This document shows positions 5,122 through 64,000 of a stretch of DNA of 64,000 bases, piece by piece. This DNA comes from Vermamoeba vermiformis (lineage: Eukaryota): contig JBEWZL010000216.1 in the NCBI GenBank assembly GCA_045837725.1, positions 1 through 64,000 of the forward strand, given 5' to 3'. The notes under the pieces are model-generated. The model ran no database searches, had not been told where the DNA came from, and was given only the letters and a program-made list of their open reading frames with translations. A program made the position numbers and the translations under genes. Numbering within the stretch: the first letter of the stretch is position 1; the number at the start of each line of letters is the position of its first letter.

Positions 5122-5643
5122 ATTGAATATTAATTATAAGAAAAATTGAATTCAGCAACATTTCAAAGATTGATACATCAAAAGGCAATTTTACAACCAG
5201 CTACAACAAAGGAGCTTGCTTGACAGCTCAGCGTTGAAACACTATACTCTAAACCAATGGCTGCATTGACAGGCCAAAACTGGATGTTAGGAGGATGATG
5301 ATAGCAACCAGGCAAAGAAGTGAGCAGGCTGCAGTGTTTAAAATAGGTGTGTTTAAATAGCTGGAGCGTTGCTTCTCTTTGCTGCCACTCTGGGTGATGC
5401 CTGTAATGCATGCGAACCCTGTGTACTTCAATGGATCACCAACAAGCAGTAGTTGGATTGGCGAGTTGACTCCATCCACTGCAACCAGCACTTTAGGACC
5501 AAGGCAGCTTGCTATAGTAGCTTCACAAGGAGCTGTTCAGCATCAAGTAGTGCTATCCTGCGCCCAGAGCTGTTCAGCAAACATTAGCAGTAATTGATAC
5601 CATCAACAATCTTTAATTTGATTAGGTTAGAAGTACAATACAG

Positions 5644-8310
5644 CTAGAAATTGTTAGAAATAAGCTGGCACAGGTCGAACATTGTCTACAAAGAAGAAAA
5701 TATTATTATTAATGATGAAACTAGACAAGTTTTACTTACAGGCCTATCAGCAGGGTTTGCTCTCCAACACTTCTCCATTATCTCATGTAGCACAGGGTCA
5801 CAGTCTGGAGGAATTGCAGGTGAGTATGCCTCATCTCTTATCTTTGCAGCTACGTCAAGCTGGTCTTCACCAAAATGAGGCTCGTGGCCATTAACTATTT
5901 CGCTCACTGATGACCATTAGAATGTGCATTGGCTGGAGTATTTGTCACATACCAACTATTCCAAATGTCCAAACATCAGACTTAACACTGTACTTCAGAT
6001 CATGAAGACTTTCAGGAGCCATCCAGCGAATTGGTCCAATATCTGTCTCCGTCTGTCCTTGTTGTGACATATCTTTGAGCACTCTTGACATGCCAAAGTC
6101 AGAGATCTTAGGCTTGCCGATCCCGAGCTTCAAAAGAGTTAACATCGTCGGCAAAACAAATCACAGTTACCAAGATATTTCGTGCAGCCAAGTCGCGATG
6201 AACAATATTGTGACTGTGCAGGTGGAGCAGTCCAAATGCGATACCTTTCACAAGTGCTTTTTGTTCGTCAGTGTTGAGTTGTTGTTTTGACAAAATCTTG
6301 TCGAGACTACCACCGTCGCAGAACTCAAGCACAATGTAAGGGAAATCTGAGTCGAGACTCACTCCAAATGTGCGCACGACATTCGGGTGAGGTGGAAGGT
6401 CGCTGTTACTCGTCAATAAGAAACATCTATGGGCTCTGAGCTTACACAGTGAGCTTCGCTTCTTTCAAGAACACCTCTTTTTCCATTAGCTGAGTACTCA
6501 TTTTGATAGCTACCTCGGCACCCTTCCATTTGCTAGGCACAAATTAGCAAGTTGTGTTTTCCATTCGGCGCCAAACTTACCCGCGGTAGACCTTTCCAAA
6601 GCTTCCTGCGCCGATTTCTGATACGAATTTAAGCTGTTTGTAAGGAATTTGCATCTTTTCGTCGATTTCTGCGTCGCCTTTCTTCGTAGGCATGAGCGAG
6701 TAAGTTGTATCTCCATTACCCCCCTCGGGGTGCTCCTTTTTGTCGCTCTTCTTCTTATCAATCTTCTTCTTGATGACGAGGAAGTAAATTATTAAAAAGA
6801 CACCAACAGCGCCGGCTACTGACAGGCTGACACCGAGACCGATTGCAAGACTATCAACTCCCGGCGGATTAATGACGTTGCTCACGGGGTTGCTCGAAGG
6901 AGTTGACGCAGTAAGTGGAGTCGTCGTGCCTGGGCCAGAATCAGAATAGTTTCCTAGAGCCCAGAAATCAATGCTGGAGTCCGTTCCAATGATTATGTAG
7001 TCGTCAAATACTGTTGCCGATATCAAATCTCCATTGCGTGTAGACTGTTTTTTGGCCAGGACATTGAAGTTATTTGCCGGATCCAGCGCGAAGAGGTTGT
7101 AGCGATTGCTTAGTTGGTCCGCAACTACTAATATCAACGTCCCATCGTTCAACAAGACGCTGAGTGTGCGTTCATATGCGATCAATTCGAAATTGTAATT
7201 GTTACCGTAGTACGATGGAACAGGAACTTGCACTCGTGTTCCTTGATTGGTGGAGCTGACGCAGTAGAAGTCCTACATCATTGGTTATGTTTGTCTACGA
7301 TTATTCGATAGCGTACCGAGGCAATTGCATTGGTGTTATTGAGAACGACAGCCCTGCCACAGAAAAACCAGTGCGTTCTGTTGGAGACAAACGTGCTGGC
7401 GATAGTATCGGTCTGCGTCAATAGCATTGAGCAATCAAGCGGTGAAGTGCACTTGTCGACAATAACTGTCGAAGTGTCAAGCCCAAATTCGTACGAGGGA
7501 TTGAGAGTGGACTCAGGTGTCGTGATCACTCGCGCCATGTAGAACTCCGTTGCTGTTTGAAAGCATCAGCACGTATTATTCGTCTCAAAAAGGACTTACG
7601 TTGTGATTGATGCACGTAGAATTGCATGATGCCCGAGGGTACTGTGTCTAACGACGAGTCATAATAAAACGAGATCTCGGTGCCATTGACAATCCTTCGA
7701 ATCATGTCGCCCTCATAGCCGGCGAACTAATTTAACGTCAAAAATGTAGTAGAATGGTGATATATAGAGCTTACCGATTTATCCAGCATTAGAGTAATGA
7801 CCTGATTTCCAATGAAGACACTAAACGAATCCACGGGAAAAAATTTCTCCAAATTGATGTTATTCGTCATAGTAACGTTTGCGTCGAAGTCTCCTAGATA
7901 GCTGTCGAACAATTCAGTTCCAGCAAACTGGCAGGAAGAAACTCCCATAATCCAACGCAGATCGAAGATCGAGTCTTTAGCGGTGAACAGAACTTTTTCC
8001 GTCAATTCCATATCTGTCATATTCCAAGTGAAAGAATAAAAATTTGCATTGTTGGTGCTGTCGAGCATGCAACCTTTGTAGACACCAGTTAACGGATCCT
8101 TTTCAACTATTCGAATATCTCTAATATCAATAAGGCCTTTATTGAGTAGGACCTGAGGCTTCAGTGAAAGTTGCCCGAACCCTGGAATTTTAGAAGTTAG
8201 TGGTGATTTTTTATTAATTTACTTTGTTGGATGCGTTTACCTAGCGCAACGACAGACGAAGCAAACAATAAAACGATGAAGCATTTGATCAGAACTATTA
8301 CCGTTTGCAT
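5644..8310 (-). CDS. Single-pass receptor-type TKL (tyrosine kinase-like) protein kinase, multi-exon
   Basis: Signal peptide MQTVIVLIKCFIVLLFASSVVA; TM helix LAIGLGVSLSVAGAVGVFLIIYFLVI followed by a basic patch; kinase motifs IGAGSFGKV, HRDLAARN, DFG, GPIRWMAPE, SDVWTFG; GT-AG introns. Confidence 0.92.
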
Positions 8311-8401
8311 ACTTTAGATGTGGTGTCGTGTCGTGCACGAAGTACGCAAGATAAACTGCGAGATTAAAATAAATTTATTTAATTTTCCATATTTGGTAAG
8401 A

Positions 8402-11400
8402 TTACCTAACCCAACTTCTCACCAATAATATCGCATACATCATGCATGGTCTGACGAGCGTAATTAGTACTTAATTTTGCGCTCTTTATTTTTACTTACT
8501 GGTCGTTCCGCCGGATCGGTCTTCCAACACATCTCCATTAGTTCCTTTAACACAGGATCGCAATCTGCCGCAATTGTAGGAGTGTAAGACTCGTCTCTAC
8601 GTAGTTGGTGAGTGAAAGAGAACGCTAAAACTTTGTTCGTACCGGATTTTGCGGGCAACGTTGATCTGATCTTCGCCAGCATGTGGCTCGTGCCCATTGA
8701 CTACTTCACTCACTAATGCGGTGTTAATAACGACTATTATTCTTGGTCGCGATACTTGCCTACAATGCCAAACGTCCAAACGTTGGATTTCACGCTGTAC
8801 ACCGCGTCGCGAATACTCTCCGGAGCCTAAGCGCTATGTTAGTACTCGAATAGTAAGCAATGCTTAACGCACCATCCAACGAACTGGCCCAATGCGCGAT
8901 GCTGTCTGACCTTGTTGTGCACCGTCTTTGAGGACACGAGACATACCAAAGTCAGAGATCTTGGGCTTATTCTCACCGACCTGATTAACGAGATTAGAAC
9001 AGAATATACTGAAGCAGGGGGTATACTTACTAAAATGTTTCTCGCGGCCAAGTCACGATGAACAATATTGTGACTGTGCAGGTGGAGCAGTCCAAATGCG
9101 ATACCTTTCACAAGTGCTTTTTGTTCATCGGTGTTGAGTTGCTGTTTTGACAAAATCTTGTCGAGACTGCCACCGTCGCAGAACTCGAGCACAATGTAAG
9201 GGAACTCCGAGTCGAGACTCACTCCGAACGTTTGTACAACATTCGGGTGAGGAGGCAATTGCCTGTACACGTTAGCGCTATGATTGTCAAAAGTACACCA
9301 CTTACAGGGTCAGCTTAGCCTCTTTCAAAAACGATTCGGCGTCCTTGGAGGATAATCTATTGTTCATTTTGATTGCGACATTTACTCCTCGCCACTCTCT
9401 GTATTGCAGTTTAGTAAGTCGATGAAGGCTAGCGTTACGATCTTACCCGACAAAAACTTTTCCAAAACTGCCAGCGCCGATCTCCTTCGTGAACACAAGG
9501 TCTTTGTATGGAATTAGCAGCTTCTTATCGAATTGTTGCAGCGGTAAATTCTCGACTGCCTCATTGTTGTTCGGTCTGCTGTGTTTCTTGCGTCGTTTTT
9601 TGTCCAAAAGTACCGCTAATACAATTGCGCCGGCGGCTACAGCACTGCCAACAACAAGACCGACAATTAAGCCAGTTTGTTCATCGGGTGTAAGACCAGA
9701 GGGAGACTTTGTCACTGAAGCCGGTGATCCTGGTTTAATATTGAGGTCCAAATTCCACGTGTAGTAATCAATTCCTAATGTCGTCACGACAGCGATGATG
9801 TTGTCTTTGCAGTGTATGGCTCTGACACCGCCGCTTCCAACCACTTGGTTAACCAAACTGAATGAATCAGATGGGAGCAATGCTGACATCGTGTAATTCA
9901 GCCTCTCTATCGCATTCGTTGTCATAATGAACACGTCGCCAATGATGCATGCTTGCATTCCTGCAAGATCAAAGGTACTTGGCTTGAATTCTCCAGAGTA
10001 GATAGCAGTTGGAAGGGCAACGGCGCCGTTTTGTCTAACACCAACAAATGCCTGCGTAATAATTCAGAAAAGTTAATGCGATTTGGAACTTACTGTTGTT
10101 AGCGTTTGAAGGGACACGCCACATCCGTACCAATTGGTACCGTCTGTAGCAATTTTTATAAAGATTCTGTCGAGCAAGCCCACCTGCGTGCACGAAGTTA
10201 ACGAGCAGTCCTCGACCTTTGCTGTCAATGAGTCTCCAATGCTGCTCGCAATAAAGTATCTGGTCGCTGGTGAGTGTAAATAAGGCTAATTATGCACCAA
10301 CGTCAGCGGAGTGTCAAATGTGAGAAAAATAAAGTTTACTCATGTTTATGCACGTTCAATAACCAATTGAGAGAAAATCTCATTACAACAAATTCTTAAC
10401 ACAGTCTACATCTTCCCAAGTCCAGTCTTGTTTCTTTGGCCATCCAACCCACTGAATTAGTATTTTACCATCTTGTTCATGATGAATTTTGTGAACTTTG
10501 TCGCAACTTCTTATCTGTCCTTTCCATCTTTTCAACAAATTATTTGCACTTATCAACTGATTACTGGCCAACCATTCATCATGCTTGTCTTGTGAGAGTT
10601 TTTCATTGTCTGTATCTTTGAATTTTACCTTGTATTCTGTGATTCCATGTCTAATTCGAGCATCCACAATCTGCTGAACATCATACAAAGGAGGATCCCA
10701 AGTGTTCCACTTATCTTCAAAGTCAAGCTTTTGTTCTGGGTTGATATATTGCTTGCATTCTCTCATTGTCTTGATTCAGTCTTTGTTTAATGGTATCAAA
10801 CTGAATTTTGGAAGCTGCAAAATATCCAACTCCATTTCTCCTGAAGTTTTCCGTAATTTATATGGCTCACTCCACTCTCCATCACAATTTGATTTAATTC
10901 TTACACAGCCTTTATGGTCTTTTGAGAACCAAAAGTGGTACTGTTCTGAAATGGCAAAATCAGGTTTTTTGTAATGCTTCTTCAAATGTGGCTTAAAGTT
11001 TACACAAGTTTCAGCTGTGAGATCTTTTACAAGTTGTTGATGCTTAAATGCTGCACTAATGTTGTTAACTAGATCACTGATATTCCACGCATCTAACCCA
11101 ATAATGTGCTTGCCAATCATTCCAAACCAACGGTCAGGTCCAAATTTGGTATGTCCGGCAACCATAAAACTGAAATAAATGTTGTCCGCCCAGCCAAGTT
11201 CAATAGCTAAGCACAGAAATTGTAGTACATATTGGTTCTTATTTTGACCAGAACAGTTATCTGCTGCAAAGTAAAGATCTCTGTCAACCTTTCTGTCAGG
11301 GTCTGTCAAACCACTTTGTTCTAAATGGTGATATAACATAGCAATTACATGTGATGATCCTTTCTTGGTTGGGTTAACTTCTGCATCAACAAAATTCTCA

Positions 11401-14400
11401 GGGTACACATAGCCTGCAAATGAGTTTGCAGTTTCATCCACCACACCAAAGAGATAAACATTCATTCTTGACATGTAGTAGACAGCTCTAGGAGAACAGT
11501 GATATCCCCAGTATGGCAGAACAAGAGTTGTTTTGAAGTCAAAGCAAATGAGACGTATTTTGCCTGCTTTCGCCAACTCTCTTAGACATTCATGGGCTTT
11601 TCTTTCTGCCTGTGCATGAGCAATATGCCGTAGCCAGCTTGCTTCTTCTTCTTCCCATTGTTGTTTAAGCTTTTTAAAAGATTCAGATTGCTGTTGCTTT
11701 GCAGAATATGTTTTTTTGGTCTTATTCCATGCAGTGCTGGCATCAATATAGCTCTGGCAGGAGTCACACCAATTTTTGCTGAAAGCAGATGTTGCAACCT
11801 TATTCTTCCAATGCTTGTTGAAATATTTGTACCAAACAGAATAGTGAAGGGCACAAGGGCAAAATTTGGAGTGTAACTCATCAGATTTTGCAATGTCCTT
11901 GTAGAAGCCAGTTTTTAAAAAGACATTTTGGTAAGTCTGCTCTTTTTTCTTTGCAACAACATAATGTATCTTTGGCTTTTTAGCTTCGTTGTTGTGCTCC
12001 ACGGGAAGCTCTGCAGCTTTACACTTTCCTGCGTAGATGGCAACTCCATCATCTGATTTCAAACGATTGCTTTTATATCTGTAGAGATTGAGTTAGAATT
12101 GTTGCTTTCTCCTGATATGACATACATTACACAGCTCCTGATATGTTCCCAAACATAGTGTAGGTAAAGTTGATGAAATGAACCAATCTCTGGAGGACAC
12201 ACATGGGTTCTCTCATTCAACCCTCTTGAAGCAAAAGGATTTGGAAGCAGCACTGATTCAAGATGCTTGTTGAGTTCTTGTTCTTGTTGAGGGGTTACTT
12301 TCTTGACTGATTTTGCCCACTTCTCTGTCTTTTGTGGAGAAGAGTAAATTCTTTTAAACACAGAATTAAGTCGTTCACTGTGCACTCCATATAGTGCCTG
12401 CCAGCTTCTAGTGCACATGGATCTTTCTGCAGCTACTGTAAACTGACCATTTTCATCCACTTGAGCTAACGAGCGGTACATTGTATGTTCAACAAAATTA
12501 TCTCTATCATCTATTGTCATGGAAATCCAACGTTGCAGGTGTTTGGAGTAATTATGCATTAGAAGAAGAGTGCAAGGGCATTCTCTTTGACAGCATTTCA
12601 GGGTGAAACAGACCAAAGCCATTCCAAGATCAGTTCGTGCATGTCCAGTAGCAATGCAAAAATCCCAGTTGAGCAACACTAATAAATATTCTTTCTTTAG
12701 ATTGGGTAGCTTTTCTACAGAGCATAATGGCCAGTCATCAATATTTGAAAGGATCCAATTCACGTGCGATTGATAATCCCGATGATTGCCGCTATCATTG
12801 GCAATATGACTCAACACTGCCCATGCTATCAAATCATGCCAAGGGTATGCTTGGAGTTGAGTTGCCAAGTCATTGTAGTTTGTGCACAGTTTGTGGTAAA
12901 CAGCAGCTTTTGGATTTCGCTTTTCAGGTGTGCAAACTTTAACTTTAAGTAGAAGTGGAACTTCTGTTGGCATTTTGGAGTCATTTAGCTCATCACGAAA
13001 CATGGCTCTAAAGTTAAATTGCCCTTCATTCTTCAAACAGAGAAGTGCGCCGGAGTAGTACTTTCGCAAGTAATTGATATCACTTTGATTCCATGCCCAT
13101 TGTGATTTGTTGAGCGAAATGCAAGCAATTCCATGAATTAAATATACTCCACAATCATCTCCATTAAGTTGTTTTGGGTATGATGGGCTGTTAGTCATCT
13201 TCCATCTCAAGAATTTCTCAGACTTTCTTGGATGATTCACGGTTGTAAAGTACTTCTCCAAAAAGCATGCTGCAAGTGTGCAGTAGATGGAGTACTTGTA
13301 TCCTGACATGCCATCATAGTGCACTAAGGTGCGACTGCTGAAATTTGCTTCTATCATTGTCCAGTGATCATCATTATAGTGCACTGGCAAAATTATTCTT
13401 GTTCTTTGAGTCATTTTATGCCAATTTAGCCAGTCTGTTGTAATGTTTGGCATATTGCTGCTATCAATGTAGTCTAGCAAAAATATTTAGTGAACATGAT
13501 CAACAAAGTGTAATCTACATACTGCTTTCATTTCCTTCAAAGGACCGAAATTTTACTCTATATAAACTTTCTGTCTTGTATATCCAATCAAGCATTACAG
13601 TGCAGTCAATAAAGTACACTGATTCCTCAGTCACATCATTAAACAGTGATATAAAGGCATTGATAACAGTAGAATCAACCCAAGCACGAGGTTTGCAGAG
13701 AGATTTCAGAGCTCCCAGAGACATGTTGGCACTTTCAGGGACATCTGATTGTAATGTGAAGAAATGAGCAAGCTTTCGATTGGGTTGGTTGCGTTTTGTA
13801 GGCAGATCAAAATCAGTTTGCCAGGTAGAATGCTCTTCGTTTTTGCTTTCACAGCTGCAAAGAGCTGATTTTGTTTTCAAGAATCGGCACTGCTCTAGGT
13901 AGAAACAATTAGCTGCAATTTTTTACAATGCTACAGTCAGGAAAAATCCTAATTACCTTGATGTGGCTCAGAGTCTATCTCAATATCAATTAAAGTTGGC
14001 AAGTTCTTAATTTCAGCATCAAATAGCTGTGAAAGCACCAGCTCTTCATCAGTACAAGAAGATACATTGCTATAGGCATGCTGCAACCTCTTTAGAACTT
14101 GTAAATCTGGCCATCCTTGAATAGAAAAGTTGTTGTTTGTCCAGAAGGTGTGTTGAGATGCTAAATATGAAGCCATTCTTGCTTTGCTTTGAACTACCAG
14201 AGATGCCAAGTCCAGTGCATCTGACAAAGGAACAAGTGAGCGGTACTTTTCCCATAGTGCTTTGTCATCCTGCTTCATATCTTTCTTTACATATTTTGAC
14301 AATGCATTTGATGATCTGCGATGCTTGAACCAATTTTGAACTCTCTTCTCTGACCAAGTGCTGCCTAAAATTGTTGACAGTAGCTGATAGTCAACGGAAG

Positions 14401-17400
14401 TAGGCAATTTTTTTTGGATGAACACATTCTCAAGCAAGTACCATTCTTCAGGCTTGATATAGGAGTCCTTATTTGAAGTTCTAGTAGCCTAACAAACCAG
14501 TCATTATTTACAAGGAATTGTGCATTTACCTTGCCACTAATCTCCTTAAAAGATTGACCATGCTTCAAAAAGTCGGCATAGTCTGCTCTTGGATCAAAGT
14601 CCTGCACTTTGGGCACATCAATGGCAGTTTCTTGTTCGTGCAATTCTAATAACACAACAAGAATAAGCCAATGTAATACATAACAGTCATCATAATTACC
14701 ATTGAATTGTTTGCAAAGACTCACTAATTTCTCCAGTGAAGAAGACTCATTTATTATCTGCAGAGAAACTGAATAAGTAACTACATACTATAAAATATTT
14801 AATTATTCTTATTTCTTCTTTTTCTTTGTTTGATTGCTTGAGCTGCAAGTGAAGCTTTTCTCTGCTCTGTGGCCTGTCGTTTTGCTTCCCGCTCACTAGG
14901 AGTAGGACCTGCTGCACGTTTTGTGCCAGGCTTTTGGATGTTGGTTGTGCTTGCCACAGATTGCGGATTGACAATGGGCTTTGGATTTGCTTGCAATTGC
15001 TGTCCCTGGGCTGAGAATTTAAGAACATGCAACTGCTTTTTAAGTTCTTGAACTTGGCATGCTAACTCTGGCAGTTCTTTCAAGGCTTCATTAAGAACTT
15101 TGTGCATCTGTTGCTGAATCTCCACTTTTTTGCGCAATTCCCTTGATGATTTAGCGTAGCTCGAAAGAGTAGCTGAGAACTTCTTCATTTTCTACATGTA
15201 AACATTAGTAACTTTGTGAGTGTCAAAAGCATTGACGTACTTCTTCAAAAATAACAGTGTCAACTTTTGCTTGGCCTCGGATTTGCTCACGAACTTCATC
15301 TACTATCTTCTGTGCATAATCCAATGCTAATGAGTGATCAGGACTAGCTGGCTTGGTCACATGATGGCTATCAGAGATGACCGGTGATCCTGGTTCAAAT
15401 TCCAAACTTGGACTTTTTGAGCTGTCCTCCAAACCTACGTTATTGACGGGTTCATCCCATTCTCCACCCGCACCATGATTGTCAGCTGAGGATGGATTTT
15501 GGTGCTGAACATCAATATTATCATCAACCACATCAGTGTGTGCGAATCCATCATGGCTGCCATATTGGTTGATAACAGGCAACTCTTTAACAACTGTTTG
15601 ATTTGCAAGTTGTTCATTGTAAGACTGGCCTCCAACAGCATTGCATATGTATTTAATGCTTAAGCTGAATCTTTGTACTGTAGGAGGAACGTTCAACTTG
15701 ACAGCTTGTTTGTACTTTTCAATAGCGCGAGATGTCGCACGGCCTCTAATCTCAGGAATGATTGTAGATATGACAAAGCGTTCATCAAATGACTGGTTTC
15801 TGCGCAAAGAAGCCCACCAGAAATATGTCATCACGTTCGCTGTTTCCAGAGCCAGTCTTTCCTTTTCGCCATGGTGTAATGCACAACCAACATCCAAAGA
15901 TATTCGCTTAACGACAGGCCTTCAATTCAATAAGTTTACAAGTAACACACAATTACAACTTACAACACTCTGTGATAAAGCTTCTGTGTTTTGCTCTCAA
16001 GCTTCTTTCTTGCTCGCGCATTTACCTCGTCACGGTCCTTTCTCTACAAATTTTATGTTAATACAACAATACAATGCGTCTCTAGTAACAATTTGAAGCA
16101 CCATTACAGTGCAAAATGATGCCATTACAGAGCGCATCAGCACCATTGCAGTGCACATAGGCACCATTACAGTGTGTGTAAGCACCATTGCAGTGCGTCT
16201 CGGCACCATTACAGTGCGAGTAGGCACCATTGCAGTGCAAGTCAGCACCATTGCAGTGCATGTTGGCACCATTACAGTGCGTGTCGGCACCATTGCAGTG
16301 CGTGTCGGCACCATTACAGTGCGTGTCGGCACCATTGCAGTGCAAGTCAGCACCATTGCAGTGCATGTTGGCACCATTACAGTGCGTGTCGGCACCATTA
16401 CAGTGCATGTTGGCACCATTGCAGTGCATGTCGGCACCATTACAGTGCGTGTCGGCACCATTGCAGTGCATGTCGGCACCATTGCAGTGCATGTCAGCAC
16501 CATTACAGTGCATGTTGGCACCATTACAGTGCGTGTAAGCACCATTGCAGTGCAAGAGATCAAGTAAATGCATATTTATTTAAGAATAATAATCACCTTA
16601 GCATTGTTGCGAGCCTCCTCTATCAAAATTATTAGGCACTCATATAATAAACTGACAATAACTTACTTTGCCACTGTTTACCACTCTTAGAATTGTTTCT
16701 GTCCATACCCTGTACAGTGGTATTGATTAGCAACGGAGGAAAAATCGATTGTTAACCAACACTTTGCGGCGTCTCGATCTCGGAGTCCTTGACAGCCATT
16801 GCACTCCCGTTTGGAGAGCAGTTAGTTCCCGCCTAGTACTTGTCATATACCAAACAGGAGTGCAGTGGCTTGCAAGGATTCCGAGATCGAGATGCCGCAA
16901 GTTGCCCGGGCGCATACCCGGCGCACGCGAAATTGCTTGTTATTGGTATTGATTTATCTTTAAGCTATTACTTAAATAATTGATAAAATGATGTATTCAT
17001 ACTATTAACATACCTGCGGAGCAATGAAAACCTTTGAATTTGAAAAATTTGTCCTCTCGAATTTGGGATGTGAGATCTGAATAATTTTTAAATTAAATCA
17101 AATAATTATAATAATGTAATTTATATATTACTTATATTATTATTAAGGGGTCGCCTATATAATTACCCCTAATTATATTTATTTGGTTAAATGCATCCCC
17201 ACATCCAAGTGGAGTTGCCGGCAGTTCACTTACCAAATCGAAATGACTCTCCAACCAATAAAAAATAGTGTTTTATAATAAAAACGCCCCTATTGTGGTA
17301 TATATCACGTGCGTTCAAACAAAACAAGCAAAAATTAATGTTCGCAACAGATCTTGGTTCGAACACACCAAAAACCCTTTATTTTTACAAACAATACCTA

Positions 17401-18270
17401 TAACTAATATGAACGTGGGTTTATAAGGCTCCGCTGACCTTGGAGCGTAAAAAGTATTAATAGTCGCTCTAATTAAATCGTATCACGTACGCGACACTTG
17501 TACCACTTCGAACGCATTGGCTTTCGTATTTGAAAGGTCGGTACTAGTAGAAAGGTAAGAGTAGGGGCCTGGTTGAGCGGCATTAAGGCGCGAGCCGATA
17601 TAGCTTCCGTTCTAAGAAATACAAAATCAGGTTTGCGTTCAGTAAGTGACTAGAACGTACCGCTGAACGATAAAATGTGATGGTGTCGGTATCGGTTTTA
17701 ATGGCGTAAATTGGGATAAAGTTATCGAATGGTCCGCTGCCAAGTTGTGTTTGTTCTTGATCAGCTACGTAGGTGAAGAACTGCACGCCTTGTTTATTAG
17801 GCTTATTTAATAGTTAGAATATTTAATAAAATATATATATATCATTTTGCGTACTGTATCGCAAACGCCGGCCACGGCACACGAATCGAGACCTTGCATT
17901 ACCGTCGCTGAGCAGTATTCAGATCCAGTCGGAATTAAATTATTAGGAAGTGAAATATTATTAACCGACGATGAAGCAATATCGCCACTATAATCCACGC
18001 CTATTGAATACAAGGCGAATTCCGTAGTGCCTGAACGAGAATCCACTAAGCATCCGCTTAAAGAGCCTTTCGTGCCATCACCATGGAAAAAAAAAGATCT
18101 ATACACGGCTGTATCGGTATTTGGCAACGAATAAGAAGTTAAATACTGGAACGCTAGAATAATGAATTAGTATTTTTGTGATTAAAATAAATTGGTGTCT
18201 TACTGTTGGCGCCAAGAACTAGTGGGGTTAGTAAGATAATGCAACAATATGCGGAAATTATTTTTCGCAT
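8402..18270 (-). CDS. Receptor-type TKL kinase, paralog of 5644-8310; its intron at 10267-17490 contains the transposon
   Basis: Signal peptide MRKIISAYCCIILLTPLVLGA at 18270. Exons at 17491-18270 join exon 10094-10266 in phase 1 (VVQVS-P-TRYFIAS), matching the paralog's phase-1 junction (VHQSQ-P-TEFYMAR). TM GLIVGLVVGSAVAAGAIVLAVLL; kinase motifs at 8400-9500. Confidence 0.85.
10383..14757 (-). CDS. Transposon polyprotein: homeodomain - Ulp1/SENP C48 protease - Cys-rich/HTH-like region - DDD transposase - two chromodomains (premature TGA at 10776-10778; 5' start uncertain)
   Basis: Removing four GT-AG introns (14529-14489, 13956-13913, 13522-13474, 12125-12079) gives one frame of 1398 codons. 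Motifs: LLENVF...WSEKRVQNWFKHRR; AWVDSTVINAF...DHWTM...HYDG...QLNGDDCGVY; ICFDF...FAADNCSGQNKN...GHTKFGPDRWFG; YDVQQIVDAR...EYKVKFK...EW and ILIQWVGWP...WTWE. Confidence 0.85.
14799..16706 (-). CDS. Transposon accessory gene, 5 exons, 404 aa, unknown function (acidic low-complexity middle, coiled coil, basic NLS-like C-terminus)
   Basis: Exons 16706-16667, 16619-16597, 16043-15964, 15919-15241 and 15191-14799 join in frame through canonical GT-AG sites: MDRNNSKSGKQWQKEARNNAKRKDRDEVNARARKKLE...LDVGCALHH...KQRKRRNKNN*. Confidence 0.75.
16098..16553. repeat. Minisatellite of 22 x 21 bp (GCACCATTRCAGTGCRTGTYG) inside intron 2 (16596-16044) of the accessory gene
   Basis: Strict 21-bp period. The unit has an internal dyad (GCAC...GTGC). 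Many unit variants are CG->TG/CA. Confidence 0.95.
16764..16900. other. Long imperfect inverted repeat (51-bp arms, 35-nt loop) upstream of the accessory gene
   Basis: 16764-16814 ttgcggcgtctcgatctcggagtccttgacagccattgcactcccgtttgg pairs with 16850-16900 ccaaacaggagtgcagtggcttgcaaggattccgagatcgagatgccgcaa. Confidence 0.9.
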
Positions 18271-18548
18271 AATTAATTGCTGTTATGCTCGCTGCATTAA
18301 AAAGAATACCAAATAAAGATCAACAATGCAAAAAAGGAAAGTTATCTCCCCCGAGATTGTAACATTATGGAAGGCAGTGAGAAGAACGCGTTGTAGTCTC
18401 GAACGAATGGTGCGAAATCTTCTAGCACGATTTTGAGAAGGAACATTAAATTTTTCGCATCCCGAGTTTTTGGTCCCGTGAAATCTTTTTGGTGACAGTT
18501 TGTTGCCACCAAATTCCACAGGAGAACAACACAATCCTGTATATTGAT

Positions 18549-18957
18549 ATGAACTCTCAAGATCAACCCCAATACCTTCCTGGTCAAACACCTGTTTACC
18601 AACAAGTCACCCCGAACTACGCCGTAGCTCCCGTGGGTGCTTACGTGCAACCTCCAGACTGTGGATACCAGCAACAACCACAGCAACAGCCATTAGTTCA
18701 ACAAACAGTAATTCACGTTAGTGGTTCGTGCCCAACTTGCGGCCGTGGAAACCTTGAAGGTAAATCTGATCAACCGTCTGTGACAAAGAATTACCTACTA
18801 GTTTACCACATTAGTCTAATTTTGTTTCCATATTATAGACGAGTTCACTTGCTGTGGCGTCGCTTGGGCAATTATTTGCTTCCCGATCGGTCTTCTGTGT
18901 TGCTTCTTAATGCGCAAAAAGAAATGCTACACTTGCGGTTATGAGATTGATGCATAA
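18549..18957 (+). CDS. BRI3 (brain protein I3)-family small Cys-rich membrane protein
   Basis: Q/P/Y-rich N-terminus, then CPTCGRGNLE-(intron 18760-18838)-DEFTCCGVAWAIICFPIGLLCCFLMRKKKCYTCG. Confidence 0.85.
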
Positions 18958-19135
18958 ATATTGAATTTAATGGTATTCTTTGTTGGAATCTTCTGAAATC
19001 ATTTTGTGAGCCGATCAGGTAAACTTTCATACGTTTATGGACAACATAACAGGTACACAGGTAGTTAAACAGAACATACTAATTTATATTGAAGATTTTA
19101 GATCGATATTTAGACGTTTGAAGTTATAGTTATTT

Positions 19136-59423: not shown

Positions 59424-59798
59424 AAATAATCGAAGATTTTGGACTTTCCTTTTGGTTGCAAAGGTGACGTTGCCTTAATTTAGGTTAATTTTACTGACAT
59501 GTTTTGGTACGTTAATAGCGCTAGAATAGATGGCTGACTATTTTCTGAACACAAAAGAGCGGATCTCTTTCCCGACGGAATTTCCCGAATCAGTCCATTG
59601 TCGTCACGCAACTTTTGATAGCCATTTATTTTCATGCGCCAGGCAAGTTTAATAACTCTTTTGTTTCTCCGCAGACCAGCACAAACGGATCAGCGAAGAT
59701 CTGACTCGTTTGCTCTGGGAGAGTAGCGGAACATTAAATCGATAGTTAATATTAAACTTTTGAGTTTCTTTTAATTTGGTATTAATAACTTATTTTAG

Positions 59799-60678
59799 TA
59801 ATCTTCGGCCTCATCCAAATGTCGTTCAAATCCTTGGTATTTCAACTGATGGAGTGAACGTTGTGATGATCATGGAGTTCTGTGACGGTGGAAGCCTGGA
59901 CAATCTCGTGTTCAAGAAGAATCCACCAATGAAAAAGAAGATTCATTTGTTGTCAGGCATTGCCAAAGGAATCTATCACTTGCACAAGAACAAGATCGTT
60001 CATCGTGATCTTGCTGCGAGAAATGTTTTGGTACGTTAACTTTGCTTACCTTGAACTGCAGTTATCAGCGCAGTCCAAACGAGATGACGCTAATCGTTCA
60101 ATACTTACAGCTATTGCGCGGTGAGCCAAAGATTTCTGTAAGTCAACACGGATCTAGGGATGAGTCATATTAATATTCGATAGGACTTTGGTATGTCTCG
60201 TAAACTTCAGGACGCAATGGCGCACGGTCAAACGAAAGCAACAGTTGGACCAATCAGATGGATGGTACGTTTTGTCGCAACATCAGTGCGGAAAAAATTA
60301 GTTAATTCTGTCGCGGTTTAGGCACCCGAGTGCTTGCGCACAGCAAAGTACAGCACCAAGTCGGATGTTTGGAGCTTTGGCATTTTGTGTTGGGAAGTGC
60401 TGAGTGGTGAAGAGCCTCACTTGAACAGCGATCCACTCACGATTGGAGTTGCAATTCGAGATCAAGGAGTGACTCCAACGATGAATACTGAATGGGATCC
60501 TGCACTTCAATCGTTGCTCAAAGATTGTTGGAATATTGACCCTGAGCAGCGACCGGTAAGAATGCGTTGCCTGTTGCCTAGCATGTGTTTATTGTTACTT
60601 AAATATAATTCATTAATTATTATTTAAAAACAGGAGTTTGACGAGATTTGCGAGCGGCTACGCAGGCTGGATGCATAA
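59799..60678 (+). pseudogene. 5'-truncated TKL kinase duplicate (subdomains IV-XI only)
   Basis: Begins at NLRPHPNVVQ and is near-identical in protein to 63602-63837. No Gly-loop, catalytic Lys, TM or ectodomain exons are visible in the ~375 bp upstream. Confidence 0.65.
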
Positions 60679-61208: not shown

Positions 61209-64000
61209 ATGGCACTCTTTGTTCGGTTTGCATTGCTGGCGCTGGCTCTCATTGCGGTTTTGCCTTTGGATGTTGTCGGTGAGTCCTCCGCTTTCTCACT
61301 ATCATCTATAATATTCGTAGCTAGTGACTTCTGAAAGTTTGAGAGTTACAACTTGCTCTTTTCAGATGTGTTTTTTGTGAATTTCTAAATATTAATATTA
61401 CATTTGTTTAATTCAATCATTCGTGTAGGACAAACTTTCTCAGTTGCAAGTCGCATTGACACTATTGGGGGCACAATATCTAACCAGATTGTGTCGAGCT
61501 TGGCACTCAACACATCTGACGTTATAGTTACTCTCGCTGCCAGGATTGATACGTTCACTTCAGTGCGTTCTTTTTGGTACAGGAATACGCGCAATGGAGA
61601 TTTGAAGAGTTTTACTACGTCTTTGGTGGCAACGAAAAACTTGACGTTTATGGAAAGTTACTACCTAGTAGTGAAACAAGAAAAAAACAACGATTACGTG
61701 GTGCAAGTTTTCTTGAATCCGCTCGTAACAGCGCAGTTTATCAGCTTATCAAATCCCTCTCTCGTCATACCAAGTATCACTGTTGCCCTGGACCAGTACG
61801 CCTTCGACAGATACATGGACGTTTTAGTGCATTCAGACGGTGCCTTCTCGCTCGTGTTTGGTGCAATTGTAGCTACTAGCACCTGCGTCTATCACACCAG
61901 ATTCACTGTCTCAACGAACGGAACTACACCGCAACAACTCTTTTGCGGGTCTAGCACTAGTTCTTCTACAAACTTGGAGGCATGGATTGACCCAACTGAC
62001 TCGAGCATTTTCTACATTGTAGCGGCCAACACGAGCAATTCTTTCTATACTTACAAGTGCATCAATGCGTTGCAACCAGGGTCAGTCTCGTGCACAAGCA
62101 TCTCACTGGCAACTTTATCAACACAAATTTCAATATCAACCGGCAGACGCGCCTTGAACAGCAATGCCTTTTTCTACTTGGGTACGAGCGATGGAAACGA
62201 CATTCAAGTCATTGTTGTGGACTTCGTGGCGGGAGTATCCAGCATAGTCAAAGTTCCGTTAGCTACAACGAGTCGTAGGAATGTTGCCTTGGTCGACTCG
62301 ACAATCCCAAACGCAGTAACTCTGGTGGCTTTTGATACCACTATTCCGGGCATTCGAGTGTTTGATATACTGTGGAACTCAACATCCAAGCAAGTCTGGT
62401 ACGCCGCAGTCGCCAACTTGACAAAAGGAAACAACTTCGACCTAACAGCGAGCGATATCATACCAGCGAGCAGCAACGGCCCTTCAATTTTCAGCATTTC
62501 TTCAGTCGAAGTAAGTTCGTCACGAATCAGTACTCAGTTCTATGGTCGTTTGTATTGCGGTGATGGTCTCGTGTTTACGGCGGTCACGGTACCAGAACAA
62601 TGTGATTCAGTGCAGTATTGTGACACTACCACCTGCCAATGCCCGAACGGCTCGCCTGGTACCAACGTATGCAATGCACCACCTCCTCCAGGAACACCAA
62701 TTGCACCGCCAGTAGCTGCCCCAGTCTCACCACCAGTTGACGTACCGGTCGCTCCAGTAGCTCCTCCAATGGACGTTCCTGTGTCAACTCCAACGCCCGT
62801 TTCTGCGCCAATTGATGCTCCTGTAACGGTACCCAATGCAAGTCCTGTGTCATCTCCGGCTACCTCTCCTGTGACTGCACAAGATCCCGTGCCAATCACT
62901 ACTCCAGCAGAGGCTGGCAACAGTACGGACAACATCAGTGACGGTCCTGTTAGCTCAGCGGGTGCATCAATTACAACAATCGTCCCTGCTGTCGTTGTAC
63001 CAGTCGCAGTTGCATCGGCAGGCGTTGCAGTACTTGTTGTGTTGCTCCAACGAAGAAAGAAGAAGAAGCAAGCAGAGAAGACATCAGCTTCATCGAGTGA
63101 CGAAGCCTCAGAGCCGCAGAGCGAACGAGTCAAGCTCGAGCCCGTCAATGTAAGTCTACTTAATTAACTTGAAGCTCCTTTGGCTAATGTAATACTCTGT
63201 AGTACTTTGCAGTGCCCACACCATCACCAGAGCTCGGAAAAGACTCAAACACCTCAGCAGGATCGATGGGCTCGAATGCATCGCTCGTGTCAACAGGCTC
63301 TAACACCACCATTCACAATCCTCTTGGTGAGCCGTTATCTGACACAATGTCAGCACTCAACACCACCAATCGATCACGCACAACAGATGATCGCATGGAC
63401 ATTCCTTACTCGGAACTCAAGTTCATCAAAGAGATTGGTGCTGGTGCATTTGGCAAAGTGTTTCTCGGTGAATGGCAAAAGACACGTGTTGCGATGAAGA
63501 TCAGCAGTATTTCATCATCAGATGAGTTCATTCGTGAAGCTGAGTTGTTGATGTAAGTCACGCGAGTACGGCAGTCACTCAGATTAATATTTTCTCCAAG
63601 CAATCTCCGTCCTCATCCAAACGTGGTTCAAATTCTCGGCATATCCGCTGACGGAGTGAATGTCGTGATGATCATGGAGTTCTGTGACGGTGGAAGTCTC
63701 GACAGTCTCGTGTTCAAGAAGAATCCACCAATGAGTGAGAAGATTCATTTGTTGTCAGGCATTGCCAAAGGAATCTATCACTTGCACAAGAACAAGATCG
63801 TTCATCGTGATCTTGCTGCACGAAATGTCTTGGTACGTAATAAAACGGTTCTTTTGTACGTACTAATTCTTTGTAGCTGTCGCGTGGTGAGCCAAAAATA
63901 TCGGTAAGTTTATTTCAGCGTTAATAATGTCATCGTTAATACTAACTTCAATCATTTAAGGACTTTGGTATGTCACGTAAACTTCAAGAAGCCACTGCAC
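61209..64000 (+). CDS. Receptor-type TKL kinase (runs off the window end)
   Basis: Signal peptide MALFVRFALLALALIAVL; large ectodomain ending in a CGDG...EQCD...CQC Cys module and a Pro/Thr/Ser stalk; TM IVPAVVVPVAVASAGVAVLVVLL-QRRKKKK; IGAGAFGKV, VAMK, HRDLAARN, DFG. Confidence 0.92.

Follow-up and report, generated by a model that had tools for sequence, protein, structure and literature searches.

The 64,000-nt stretch of Vermamoeba vermiformis DNA analysed here (contig JBEWZL010000216.1, positions 1 to 64,000; hereafter the window) is eukaryotic DNA of ~40 % G+C and carries ordinary genes, including those for ABC transporters, FAD monooxygenases, PARP and several kinases. One of these, a putative receptor-like kinase gene on the minus strand, is interrupted by an element of ~7.2 kb. 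We consider it very likely that this element is a cut-and-paste transposon of the Sola1 group, ~7.17 kb in length and in the same orientation as its host, which sits in a 47-nt phase-1 intron of the kinase gene at a site that is polymorphic for the insertion. The coordinates of the features are collected in Table 1.

We inferred the whole host gene model from the sequence, taking the upstream exons from a longest-open reading frame (ORF) splice model and reading the downstream introns (42–50 nt) by eye. In this model the gene encodes the parts of a receptor-like kinase: a signal-peptide-like N-terminus beginning at 18270 (MRKIISAYCCIILLTPLVLGA), an ectodomain, one putative transmembrane segment (the hydrophobic stretch LIVGLVVGSAVAAGAIVLAVLL, followed by a KKRRKK stop-transfer sequence) and a kinase domain (Pfam PK_Tyr_Ser-Thr, E value 1.1e-20) whose HRDLAARN, DFG and PVRWM/APE motifs are intact in open exons. 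The three upstream introns measure 50, 53 and 49 nt and have the donors GTAAGA, GTACGC and GTACGT, respectively.

The original prediction held that the kinase exons stop at 10266 and resume at 17491, with the GT donor and AG acceptor surviving at the two edges, and both signals were indeed read on the minus strand. The upstream exon reads ...EVVQVS plus a single C, ends at 17491 and is followed by the donor GTACGT; the acceptor AG occupies 10268–10267, and the frame restarts at 10266 as CG ACC AGA TAC (P-TRYFIASS). The join 17491/10266 is therefore in phase 1, as had been proposed (VVQVS-P-TRYFIA), with the C + CG codon split completing a proline. The downstream block (8406–10266) lacks both a start codon and a signal peptide.

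The same prediction had compared this join with that of the neighbouring kinase paralog. For the intron itself the comparison stands, as the paralog intron at 7599–7553 agrees with the uninterrupted host intron in position, phase and its 47-nt length. It does not extend to the upstream ectodomain exons of the two genes, between which similarity was undetected (the local score of 34 was equalled or exceeded in 99 of 300 shuffles, whose mean was 32.2). The paralogs are alike only further downstream (29.7 % over 175 membrane-proximal aa and 93.75 % over 80 aa of the kinase domain), and a comparison of the 206-aa ectodomain/transmembrane exon with longer proteins returned no match at E ≤ 0.001 among 8,000 candidates. 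Two more kinase-domain paralogs, 47–51 % identical to the kinase exon of the interrupted gene, lie on the plus strand at 59794–60033 and 63602–63889, which makes for a small cluster of kinase genes in the window.

Both forms of the insertion site were found among the Logan contigs of one DNA run (X1), which we aligned to positions 5300–18800. One contig joins 10280 to 17458, skipping 7177 bases with 3 letters shared, at a depth of 118.9, and represents the empty site; an empty-site allele had been sought in the light of the original prediction, and this contig supplies it. The filled form is represented by a 5,999-base contig (10254–16252, depth 320.4) that spans the left junction. The flanking contigs have depths of 358.1 and 469.2, the filled and empty depths add up to approximately the flank depth (320 + 119 = 439), and all bins across the stretch have depth in this run. 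The start of the filled contig lies 30 bases ahead of 10284 and that of the right-flank contig exactly at 17458, as expected of the branch points (10283/10284 and 17457/17458) of a bubble between two alleles in a graph of 31-letter words. Together, the empty-site contig, the filled contig and the graph bubble indicate that the insertion is real and not an assembly join, and that its limits are known to the base.

The intron of the empty allele is a GT–AG intron of 47 nt, made up of 17490–17458 (33 nt) and 10280–10267 (14 nt). A 41-nt intron had been proposed on removal of the insert together with one copy of CTAATTA, which was taken to be a 7-base duplication; the empty-site contig contradicts this length, and the heptamer is no target duplication, since one copy (10286–10292) belongs to the inverted end of the element and the other (17469–17475) to the host intron. 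The match is one of chance, as 7.2 % of random same-strand 40-nt window pairs share a 7-mer. The wider claim, a same-strand mobile element of ~7.2 kb inside a tiny receptor-kinase intron, is borne out by the X1 contigs and by the anatomy of the element.

The empty form makes up ~27 % of alleles in X1, i.e. filled and empty sites stand at roughly 3 : 1, a ratio that could come from polyploidy, aneuploidy or a mixed culture. The empty site contains a single clean target copy without a footprint, only one joined form was reported, and this clean, footprint-free site looks like a never-occupied allele. Depth within the element is flat at 320, which argues against extra identical copies and hence against excision and reinsertion. 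No copy at ≥95 % identity adding appreciable depth was found in X1, and neither blastn nor tblastn returned a second copy of the element in the window. At 13260, 15094, 17080 and 17221, some X1 contigs change from sequence that matches the element to unrelated sequence, so that diverged fragments of related elements exist elsewhere in the genome.

Insertion would have taken place at the AT-rich target ATAA, 13–16 nt upstream of the acceptor AG, the larger distance applying when the whole 5′-ward duplicated copy is counted as part of the insertion. The inverted ends are 28 nt long and imperfect (left end GGCTAATT; right end TACTTTTT), and only the left one starts with GG, the right one starting with TA. 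In register, the ends agree at 23/34 positions under a 4-bp duplication model, 24/34 under a 2-bp model and 7/34 under a strict 3-bp model; a TA duplication is formally possible. We favour a 4-bp duplication with one mismatch on the basis of the family assignment discussed below, with the reservation that one copy is no proof.

Table 1. Coordinates of the interrupted kinase gene, its neighbouring paralog and the features of the inserted element (positions are those of the window)
Feature	Position	Strand	Remarks
Neighbouring kinase paralog	~8218–5700	minus	intron 7599–7553, 47 nt, VHQSQ-C/CA-TEFYMA
Host kinase, downstream exons (modelled)	8406–10266	minus	ectodomain, transmembrane segment, kinase domain; stop codon 8408–8406
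3′ part of host intron, retained	10267–10279	minus	TTACACTCACCAG; ends in acceptor AG 10268–10267
Left target duplication copy, ATAA (plus strand)	10280–10283		single copy in empty allele
Transposon, 4-bp duplication model	10284–17456	minus	7,173 bp
Transposon, strict 3-bp model	10284–17457	minus	7,174 bp
Left terminal inverted repeat	10284–10311		GGCTAATTATGCACCAACGTCAGCGGAG; inverted-repeat search: 31 nt, 77 %
C-terminal chromodomain region	10386–10775	minus	Pfam match 10521–10685, PF00385, E value 4.3e-5, 23.8 bits, just under the cut-off of 25.1
In-frame TGA	10776–10778	minus	cuts chromodomain off transposase
Transposase exon	10779–12078	minus	follows intron 12125–12079
DUF7869/Sola1 RNase H-like domain	10899–11471	minus	PF25273, E value 2.8e-23
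Ulp1/C48 cysteine protease	13052–13922	minus	PF02902, E value 1.3e-15; split by intron 13522–13474
Homeodomain	14312–14458	minus	in exon 14488–13957; PF00046, E value 1.8e-5, 24.9 bits against a cut-off of 22.9
Exon, helical and basic region	14802–15191	minus	ends ...KQRKRRNKNN, then TAA
Exon, N-terminal region	15226–15921	minus	232-aa open frame, no Pfam match; then 49-nt intron
Element introns	15240–15192, 14529–14489, 13956–13913, 13522–13474, 12125–12079	minus	49, 41, 44, 49 and 47 nt
Tandem array of 21-nt units	16140–16554		GCACCATTGCAGTGCATGTCG (plus strand); 19.8 copies, 86 % matches; 16017–16646 at lower identity
Inverted repeat/hairpin	16764–16900		in 5′ region of element, upstream of tandem array; 51-nt arms, 88 % complementary, 35-nt loop
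Right terminal inverted repeat	17429–17456		inverted-repeat search
Right target duplication copy, TTAA (plus strand)	17457–17460		TAA (17458–17460) identical to left copy; T at 17457, against A expected under the 4-bp model
5′ part of host intron, retained	17461–17490	minus	GTACGTGATACGATTTAATTAGAGCGACTA
Host receptor-like kinase, upstream exons (modelled)	17491–18270	minus	four exons; start codon 18270; last exon ends at 17491, phase 1

On the minus strand of the element, eight open frames follow one another, and five short introns (41–49 nt) connect them. These introns closely resemble those of the host, with GTA-type donors (GTACGT, GTAAAT, GTAATT and GTATGT) and, in some cases, CTAA-type branch-like motifs. 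From the summed lengths of the open frames, we estimate that the element encodes one multi-exon protein of roughly 1,600–1,750 aa. In order, this protein would comprise an N-terminus without a Pfam match, a helical and basic region, a homeodomain, an Ulp1 protease, a DDD (three-aspartate) transposase and a chromodomain. The catalytic triad of the Ulp1 protease (H, D and C) is present by eye (DHW ... HYDGM ... QLNGDDCG). Relatives in protein collections are 83 % to 49 % identical, and tblastn places them across the frames of the window; in three of them (P0023, 968 aa; P0006; P0024) a single frame covers the chromodomain region, DUF7869 and sequence from the Ulp1 side, and a precomputed domain table gives the PF00385 chromodomain for P0001–P0004. 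A metagenome scan with the close-family alignment yielded one 1,159-bp fragment (L001), useless for termini.

Two anomalies were evident in this gene. At the in-frame TGA that precedes the chromodomain, all six relatives that were read (P0001, P0002, P0003, P0004, P0006 and P0023) continue through, with R in five and Q in one, indicating that the chromodomain has been lost to a nonsense change in the window copy. Further upstream, no canonical short intron was found between 14802 and 14787, and no canonical donor within 115 nt. A 44-nt interval (14812–14769) would join the frames in phase but starts with AT rather than GT, and is probably an intron with a dead splice donor. On account of the premature stop and the probable dead donor, the window copy is most likely no longer autonomous; it does retain the three candidate catalytic aspartates. 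Transposition would be of the cut-and-paste kind, with the DDD domain as its catalyst and the 28-nt ends as its substrate, while the homeodomain may bind DNA or the ends of the element and the chromodomain may guide chromatin targeting.

The 1.5-kb 5′ region of the element is non-coding and contains the tandem array (about 20 to 30 copies), whose 21-nt units might be transposase-binding or promoter repeats. An Rfam scan of positions 8000–19000 returned only a sub-threshold microRNA-family match on the hairpin upstream of the array (both strands, 31.7 against 77 bits), which we took as chance.

The domain that identifies the transposase is DUF7869 (PF25273), a Pfam family with 2,240 cluster representatives at E ≤ 0.001 and five at E ≤ 1e-30. 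Its candidate catalytic residues in the window are D185 (11540–11538), D278 (11261–11259) and D320 (11135–11133). Across a 70-sequence alignment, D278, N284, K285, N286, H314 and D320 do not vary, and D185 is conserved in ≥90 % of the sequences. The motifs DNCxGQN[KR]N and GHT[KR]xxxD were both present in 103 of the 167 family proteins fetched, at an offset of 35 residues in 55 of the 60 rows listed. An AlphaFold2 model of the transposase (predicted local distance difference test score 82.3, predicted template modelling score 0.75) places D185 on strand 180–186 (strand 1), D278 at the end of strand 272–278 (strand 4) and D320 in helix 318–330 after strand 5. Strand 1, strand 4 and the helix that follows are where DDE/D enzymes require their acidic residues, according to PMC5718144. 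Foldseek against the PDB returned no match at E ≤ 0.001, with weak integrase and Metnase rows only. In a VIA-align comparison with 48,161 chains, DDE transposases or integrases took all of the first 22 places among the 50 matches listed; they included Mos1 (4mdb_A, Z 10.0, root-mean-square deviation 2.9 Å, 160 aligned), simian immunodeficiency virus integrase (9.8), Metnase (9.5), IstA (9.2) and Sleeping Beauty (8.0). In the model, DUF7869 is thus an integrase/mariner-like RNase H fold with a DDD triad, for which catalysis is predicted.

Members of the Sola superfamily use DDD chemistry, make 4-bp AT-rich duplications and are present in bacteria; the superfamily and its Sola1 transposons are reportedly owed to Bao, Jurka and Kapitonov in 2009. 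SrosS of Salpingoeca rosetta is a Sola1 example named in PMC6875170, and for the insect elements PMC3845634 calls a tetranucleotide target AWWT/AWDT a hallmark of Sola1 and describes inverted ends that start GGACCG and a 630-aa autonomous ORF. The window transposase carries the signature LYFAADNCSGQNKN around its second catalytic aspartate. The stretch LYFAADNCSGQNKNQYVLQFLCLAIELGWADNI lies in register with states 81–113 of the RNase_H_Sola1 profile ('lilysDncagqNknsfvlaallefvirgqikvI'; PMC5751038 supplementary file 1), agreeing by eye, in an unscored comparison, at D, N, C, G, Q, N, K and N and later at V, L, L, G and I. In addition to this signature, the element resembles Sola1 in having three acidic residues that are all D, inverted repeats with a left end in GG, an AT-rich target and bacterial relatives. 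It differs in its size, with 7.2 kb and an estimated protein of ~1,700 aa against 630 aa for the insect ORF in PMC3845634 and ~640 aa for the bacterial ORFs, and in the fusion of the transposase to a homeodomain, an Ulp1 protease and a chromodomain. Moreover, its duplication is perfect over three of four bases and its right end is not GG. We therefore filed the element as a putative member of the Sola1 group, which the duplication and the right terminus of the window copy fit in part.

Relatives of the transposase were also detected outside eukaryotes. A search of prokaryote genome contigs with a degenerate DNA pattern for DNCxGQNKN identified 58 loci with the motif, 44 of which also encode GH[TS][KR]xxx[DE] at offset 35, mostly in ORFs of ~640 aa. 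All seven of the prokaryote loci tested matched PF25273, and none of the seven matched an NCBIfam model, those for transposases included; bacterial insertion sequences of this DUF7869/Sola1 type are therefore probably annotated as hypothetical proteins. The clearest case is a 7.85-Mb chromosome labelled uncultured Desulfobacterium with five 99.9 %-identical copies of 2,063 bp (L005, L020, L028, L050 and L051). These have 36-nt inverted ends (32/36) that start with GG, encode a transposase of 641 aa and are flanked in 5/5 cases by perfect 4-bp duplications (three of ATAT and one each of AGAT and TTAT). The ends of bacterial copies start GGCGGG and GGGGGT. Other bacterial loci were found in Desulfocicer vacuolatum DSM 3385 (L019) and Candidatus Thiomargarita nelsonii (L014, L030 and L040), and at L058. 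Three loci (L002, L024 and L041) are 672-aa ORFs on short metagenome-bin contigs and look eukaryotic; L002 carries a homeodomain (E value 3.2e-12) after DUF7869. Approximately ten loci come from one 'Stappiaceae bacterium' bin with >90 'chromosomes', a possible case of eukaryotic contamination.

Comparison with other transposons that carry similar domains returned partial likenesses. Zisupton and plant Mutator/CACTA elements carry Ulp1, and chromovirus-type integrases, like the window protein, have a C-terminal chromodomain after a DNA-joining enzyme. By this analogy, the chromodomain suggests chromatin-guided targeting, with the differences that the window element is a DNA transposon rather than a long terminal repeat retrotransposon and that its chromodomain is cut off by a stop. 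Tc1/mariner elements are characterized by a DDE_1, DDE_3 or Transposase_1 domain and a TA duplication; we rejected this assignment as no Pfam family match to it was found and the fold likeness to Mos1 is also seen with integrases and IS21. Mos1 (PDB 4mdb) is the best structural match and, like the window domain, passes from the last strand to the helix with the third acidic residue without a large insertion, but identity is 11 %, the D278–D320 spacing of the window enzyme is 41 residues and there is no Tc1/mariner match in Pfam. Ginger1 shares a C48/Ulp1 domain beside its transposase (PMC2836005), whereas the window transposase is neither an rve-integrase, as in Ginger, nor of the KDZ, CACTA or MULE type, for none of which a Pfam match appeared at E up to 10.

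Several observations weigh against the assignment to a polymorphic Sola1 insertion. The Sola1 assignment itself was made from consensus letters read by eye over 36 states of the profile, which was left unscored. The perfect flanking repeat is TAA (3 bp), so that the 4-bp reading needs a mismatch (ATAA against TTAA); the target ATAA fits AWWT at three of four positions only; and the right end starts with TA, leaving GG to the left end alone. The termini were read from a single copy of the element, no second copy being present in the window, and the loss of the splice donor was proposed without relatives that span that region. As for the alleles, the empty site is documented by one short contig from a single run, the shorter side of the contig being 27 letters and the run possibly deriving from the same sample as the assembly, and a filled-to-empty ratio of ~3 : 1 is unlike that of a simple diploid heterozygote. 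Many of the 58 prokaryote loci are on metagenome-bin contigs and may represent eukaryotic contamination, which makes 58 an upper bound. Finally, none of the RNA reads from the three runs described below bears on the effect on the kinase.

The insertion separates all but the last 13–16 nt of the 47-nt intron from the acceptor and leaves the original branch region 7.2 kb away, while every intron that we modelled, in host or element, is 41–53 nt. In a genome with introns of this size, a 7.2-kb intron would be unlikely to be spliced by intron definition, and the same-strand gene of the element, with its 3′ end, would lie between donor and acceptor. Since most of the old intron now lies 7.2 kb from the acceptor, introns here are tiny and splice sites and a 3′ end are supplied by the element itself, the filled allele is probably null or weak, or makes aberrant or chimeric RNA, with the empty allele supplying the normal kinase. 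The heptamer TAATTAG (minus strand) occurs in the 3′ end of the element (10286–10292) 19 nt from the acceptor, and the copy in the host intron (17469–17475) was 25 nt from it. The presence of the heptamer near the acceptor is probably due to chance, though it could provide a substitute branch region.

Raw reads from three RNA runs with the same species label (X19, X20 and X21) contributed 4, 5 and 11 reads, respectively, to the 13.5-kb stretch, all of them partly fitting. They fall mainly on 9034–9071, the 38 bases that code for HRDLAARN, and have a T>G difference at 9042 and unrelated sequence on both sides; these loose ends and the mismatch indicate that they derive from other kinase paralogs. 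In these runs, no usable reads lie on the junctions, the element or the exons of the paralog, and the host exons are likewise uncovered; among the sequencing runs listed as containing the stretch, none is recorded as RNA. Other members of the kinase family are expressed in these libraries, while the interrupted gene and its neighbouring paralog were undetected.

That the 7.2-kb insert is nevertheless spliced out cleanly as a giant intron, so that the filled allele still makes normal kinase, appears unlikely to us. The donor GT, the acceptor AG and the last 13–16 nt of the intron do survive, the host exons are all open with the kinase motifs intact, and the TAATTAG in the 3′ end of the element lies 19 nt from the acceptor, against 25 nt for the same heptamer in the original intron. 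However, an intron of this length has no counterpart among those modelled (41–53 nt), and the five to six splice-site pairs and the 3′ end of the same-strand gene of the element would compete with the host sites. No RNA read crosses 17491/10266, an absence that is uninformative since the exons also lack reads. A further objection, that the exons on either side of the insert belong to different genes or that the insert is a product of the assembly, had been named alongside the original prediction and is, in our view, hardly credible. It could appeal to the upstream ectodomain exons, which have no significant similarity to the paralog, and to the unspliced upstream frame, which stops three codons past 17491; yet the empty-site contig sets the blocks 47 nt apart with a canonical in-phase intron between them, the position, phase and length of that intron are common to the paralog, and the downstream block lacks a start codon and a signal peptide. 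An assembly join is opposed by the independent Logan contigs, which span the left junction at a depth of 320 and leave no bin without depth.

The nature of the empty site and the identity of the superfamily were weighed in the same manner. Present-day mobility of the element, or of its family acting in trans, is improbable; it would mean that the empty-site reads (~27 %) stem from precise, footprint-free excision of an active Sola1 element in some nuclei rather than from an ancestral unoccupied allele. The empty form is indeed short of the 50 % of a diploid heterozygote, the catalytic aspartates of the window copy are intact, and relatives with 83 % identical transposases exist that could act in trans. 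Against this, the empty site has a single clean target copy and no footprint, in the one joined form reported; at 320, depth is the same in the element as in the filled junction contig and lower than in the flanks, so that excised copies would not have reinserted; there is no other ≥95 % identical copy that adds appreciable depth; and the window copy has a premature stop and a probably dead donor. If it were true, this would be the first sign of Sola activity and of piggyBac-like seamless excision in the superfamily. Similarly, we give very little credence to an origin in a superfamily with true 3-bp duplications, either Zator/ISAzo13-like or PIF/Harbinger with a TWA target. PIF/Harbinger elements combine a DDE_Tnp_4-type transposase with a Myb-like second gene, and the TWA-like TAA repeat is the sole trait shared with them; no such Pfam match was found in any frame of the element, nor when four of these were searched again at E up to 10. 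In favour of Zator/ISAzo13, the perfect flanking repeat is TAA, duplications in both Zator and ISAzo13 are 3 bp (PMC10045372), PF07592 (DDE_Tnp_ISAZ013) matches 3/70 family members weakly (best E value 0.0013), one Atlas cluster has this domain on 11 % of its members, and the compact fold is nearest that of mariner-type enzymes, with which Zator is grouped in PMC7386202. At the conserved aspartate, however, the Zator profile in the PMC5751038 supplement reads 'vliltvDGgPDenpry' (DGGPDENP), whereas the window family has ADNCxGQNKN, which the Sola1 profile matches in register. NCBIfam ISAzo13 models matched 0/70 family members, and the window transposase ORF matched no Pfam transposase family other than PF25273, and thus not PF07592, even at E up to 10. 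Furthermore, the inverted ends fall out of register under a strict 3-bp model (7/34 against 23/34), and the bacterial relatives make 4-bp duplications in 5/5 copies. A polymorphic Sola1-group insertion accordingly remains the reading that we prefer.

Elsewhere in the window, positions 1–2000 (G+C 0.54, G/C skew +0.31) are strongly unlike the remaining sequence.

Transposon insertions in introns and presence/absence alleles are commonplace, and the transposon family is a known one. Novel points are the connection of DUF7869 with Sola1, the fusion of homeodomain, Ulp1, DDD and chromodomain in one large architecture, and the unnamed bacterial relatives. A full-text search returned no papers naming 'DUF7869' or 'PF25273', and a literature search for a transposase with Ulp1 and a chromodomain returned Ginger and others and no Sola, although it was too narrow to show that the architecture is unpublished. 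For the host, the insertion is a routine presence/absence variant in one member of a kinase family, with an intact allele still present. For annotation, its value lies in tying a Pfam domain of unknown function with 2,240 cluster representatives to the Sola1 transposase core, in a Sola1 enzyme fused to a homeodomain, an Ulp1 protease and a chromodomain, and in unnamed bacterial insertion sequences of the same family that are missed by the NCBI transposase models (0/7). The pair of filled and empty alleles at a 47-nt intron would, moreover, offer a clean natural experiment in the handling of a 7.2-kb intron by an organism whose introns are tiny.

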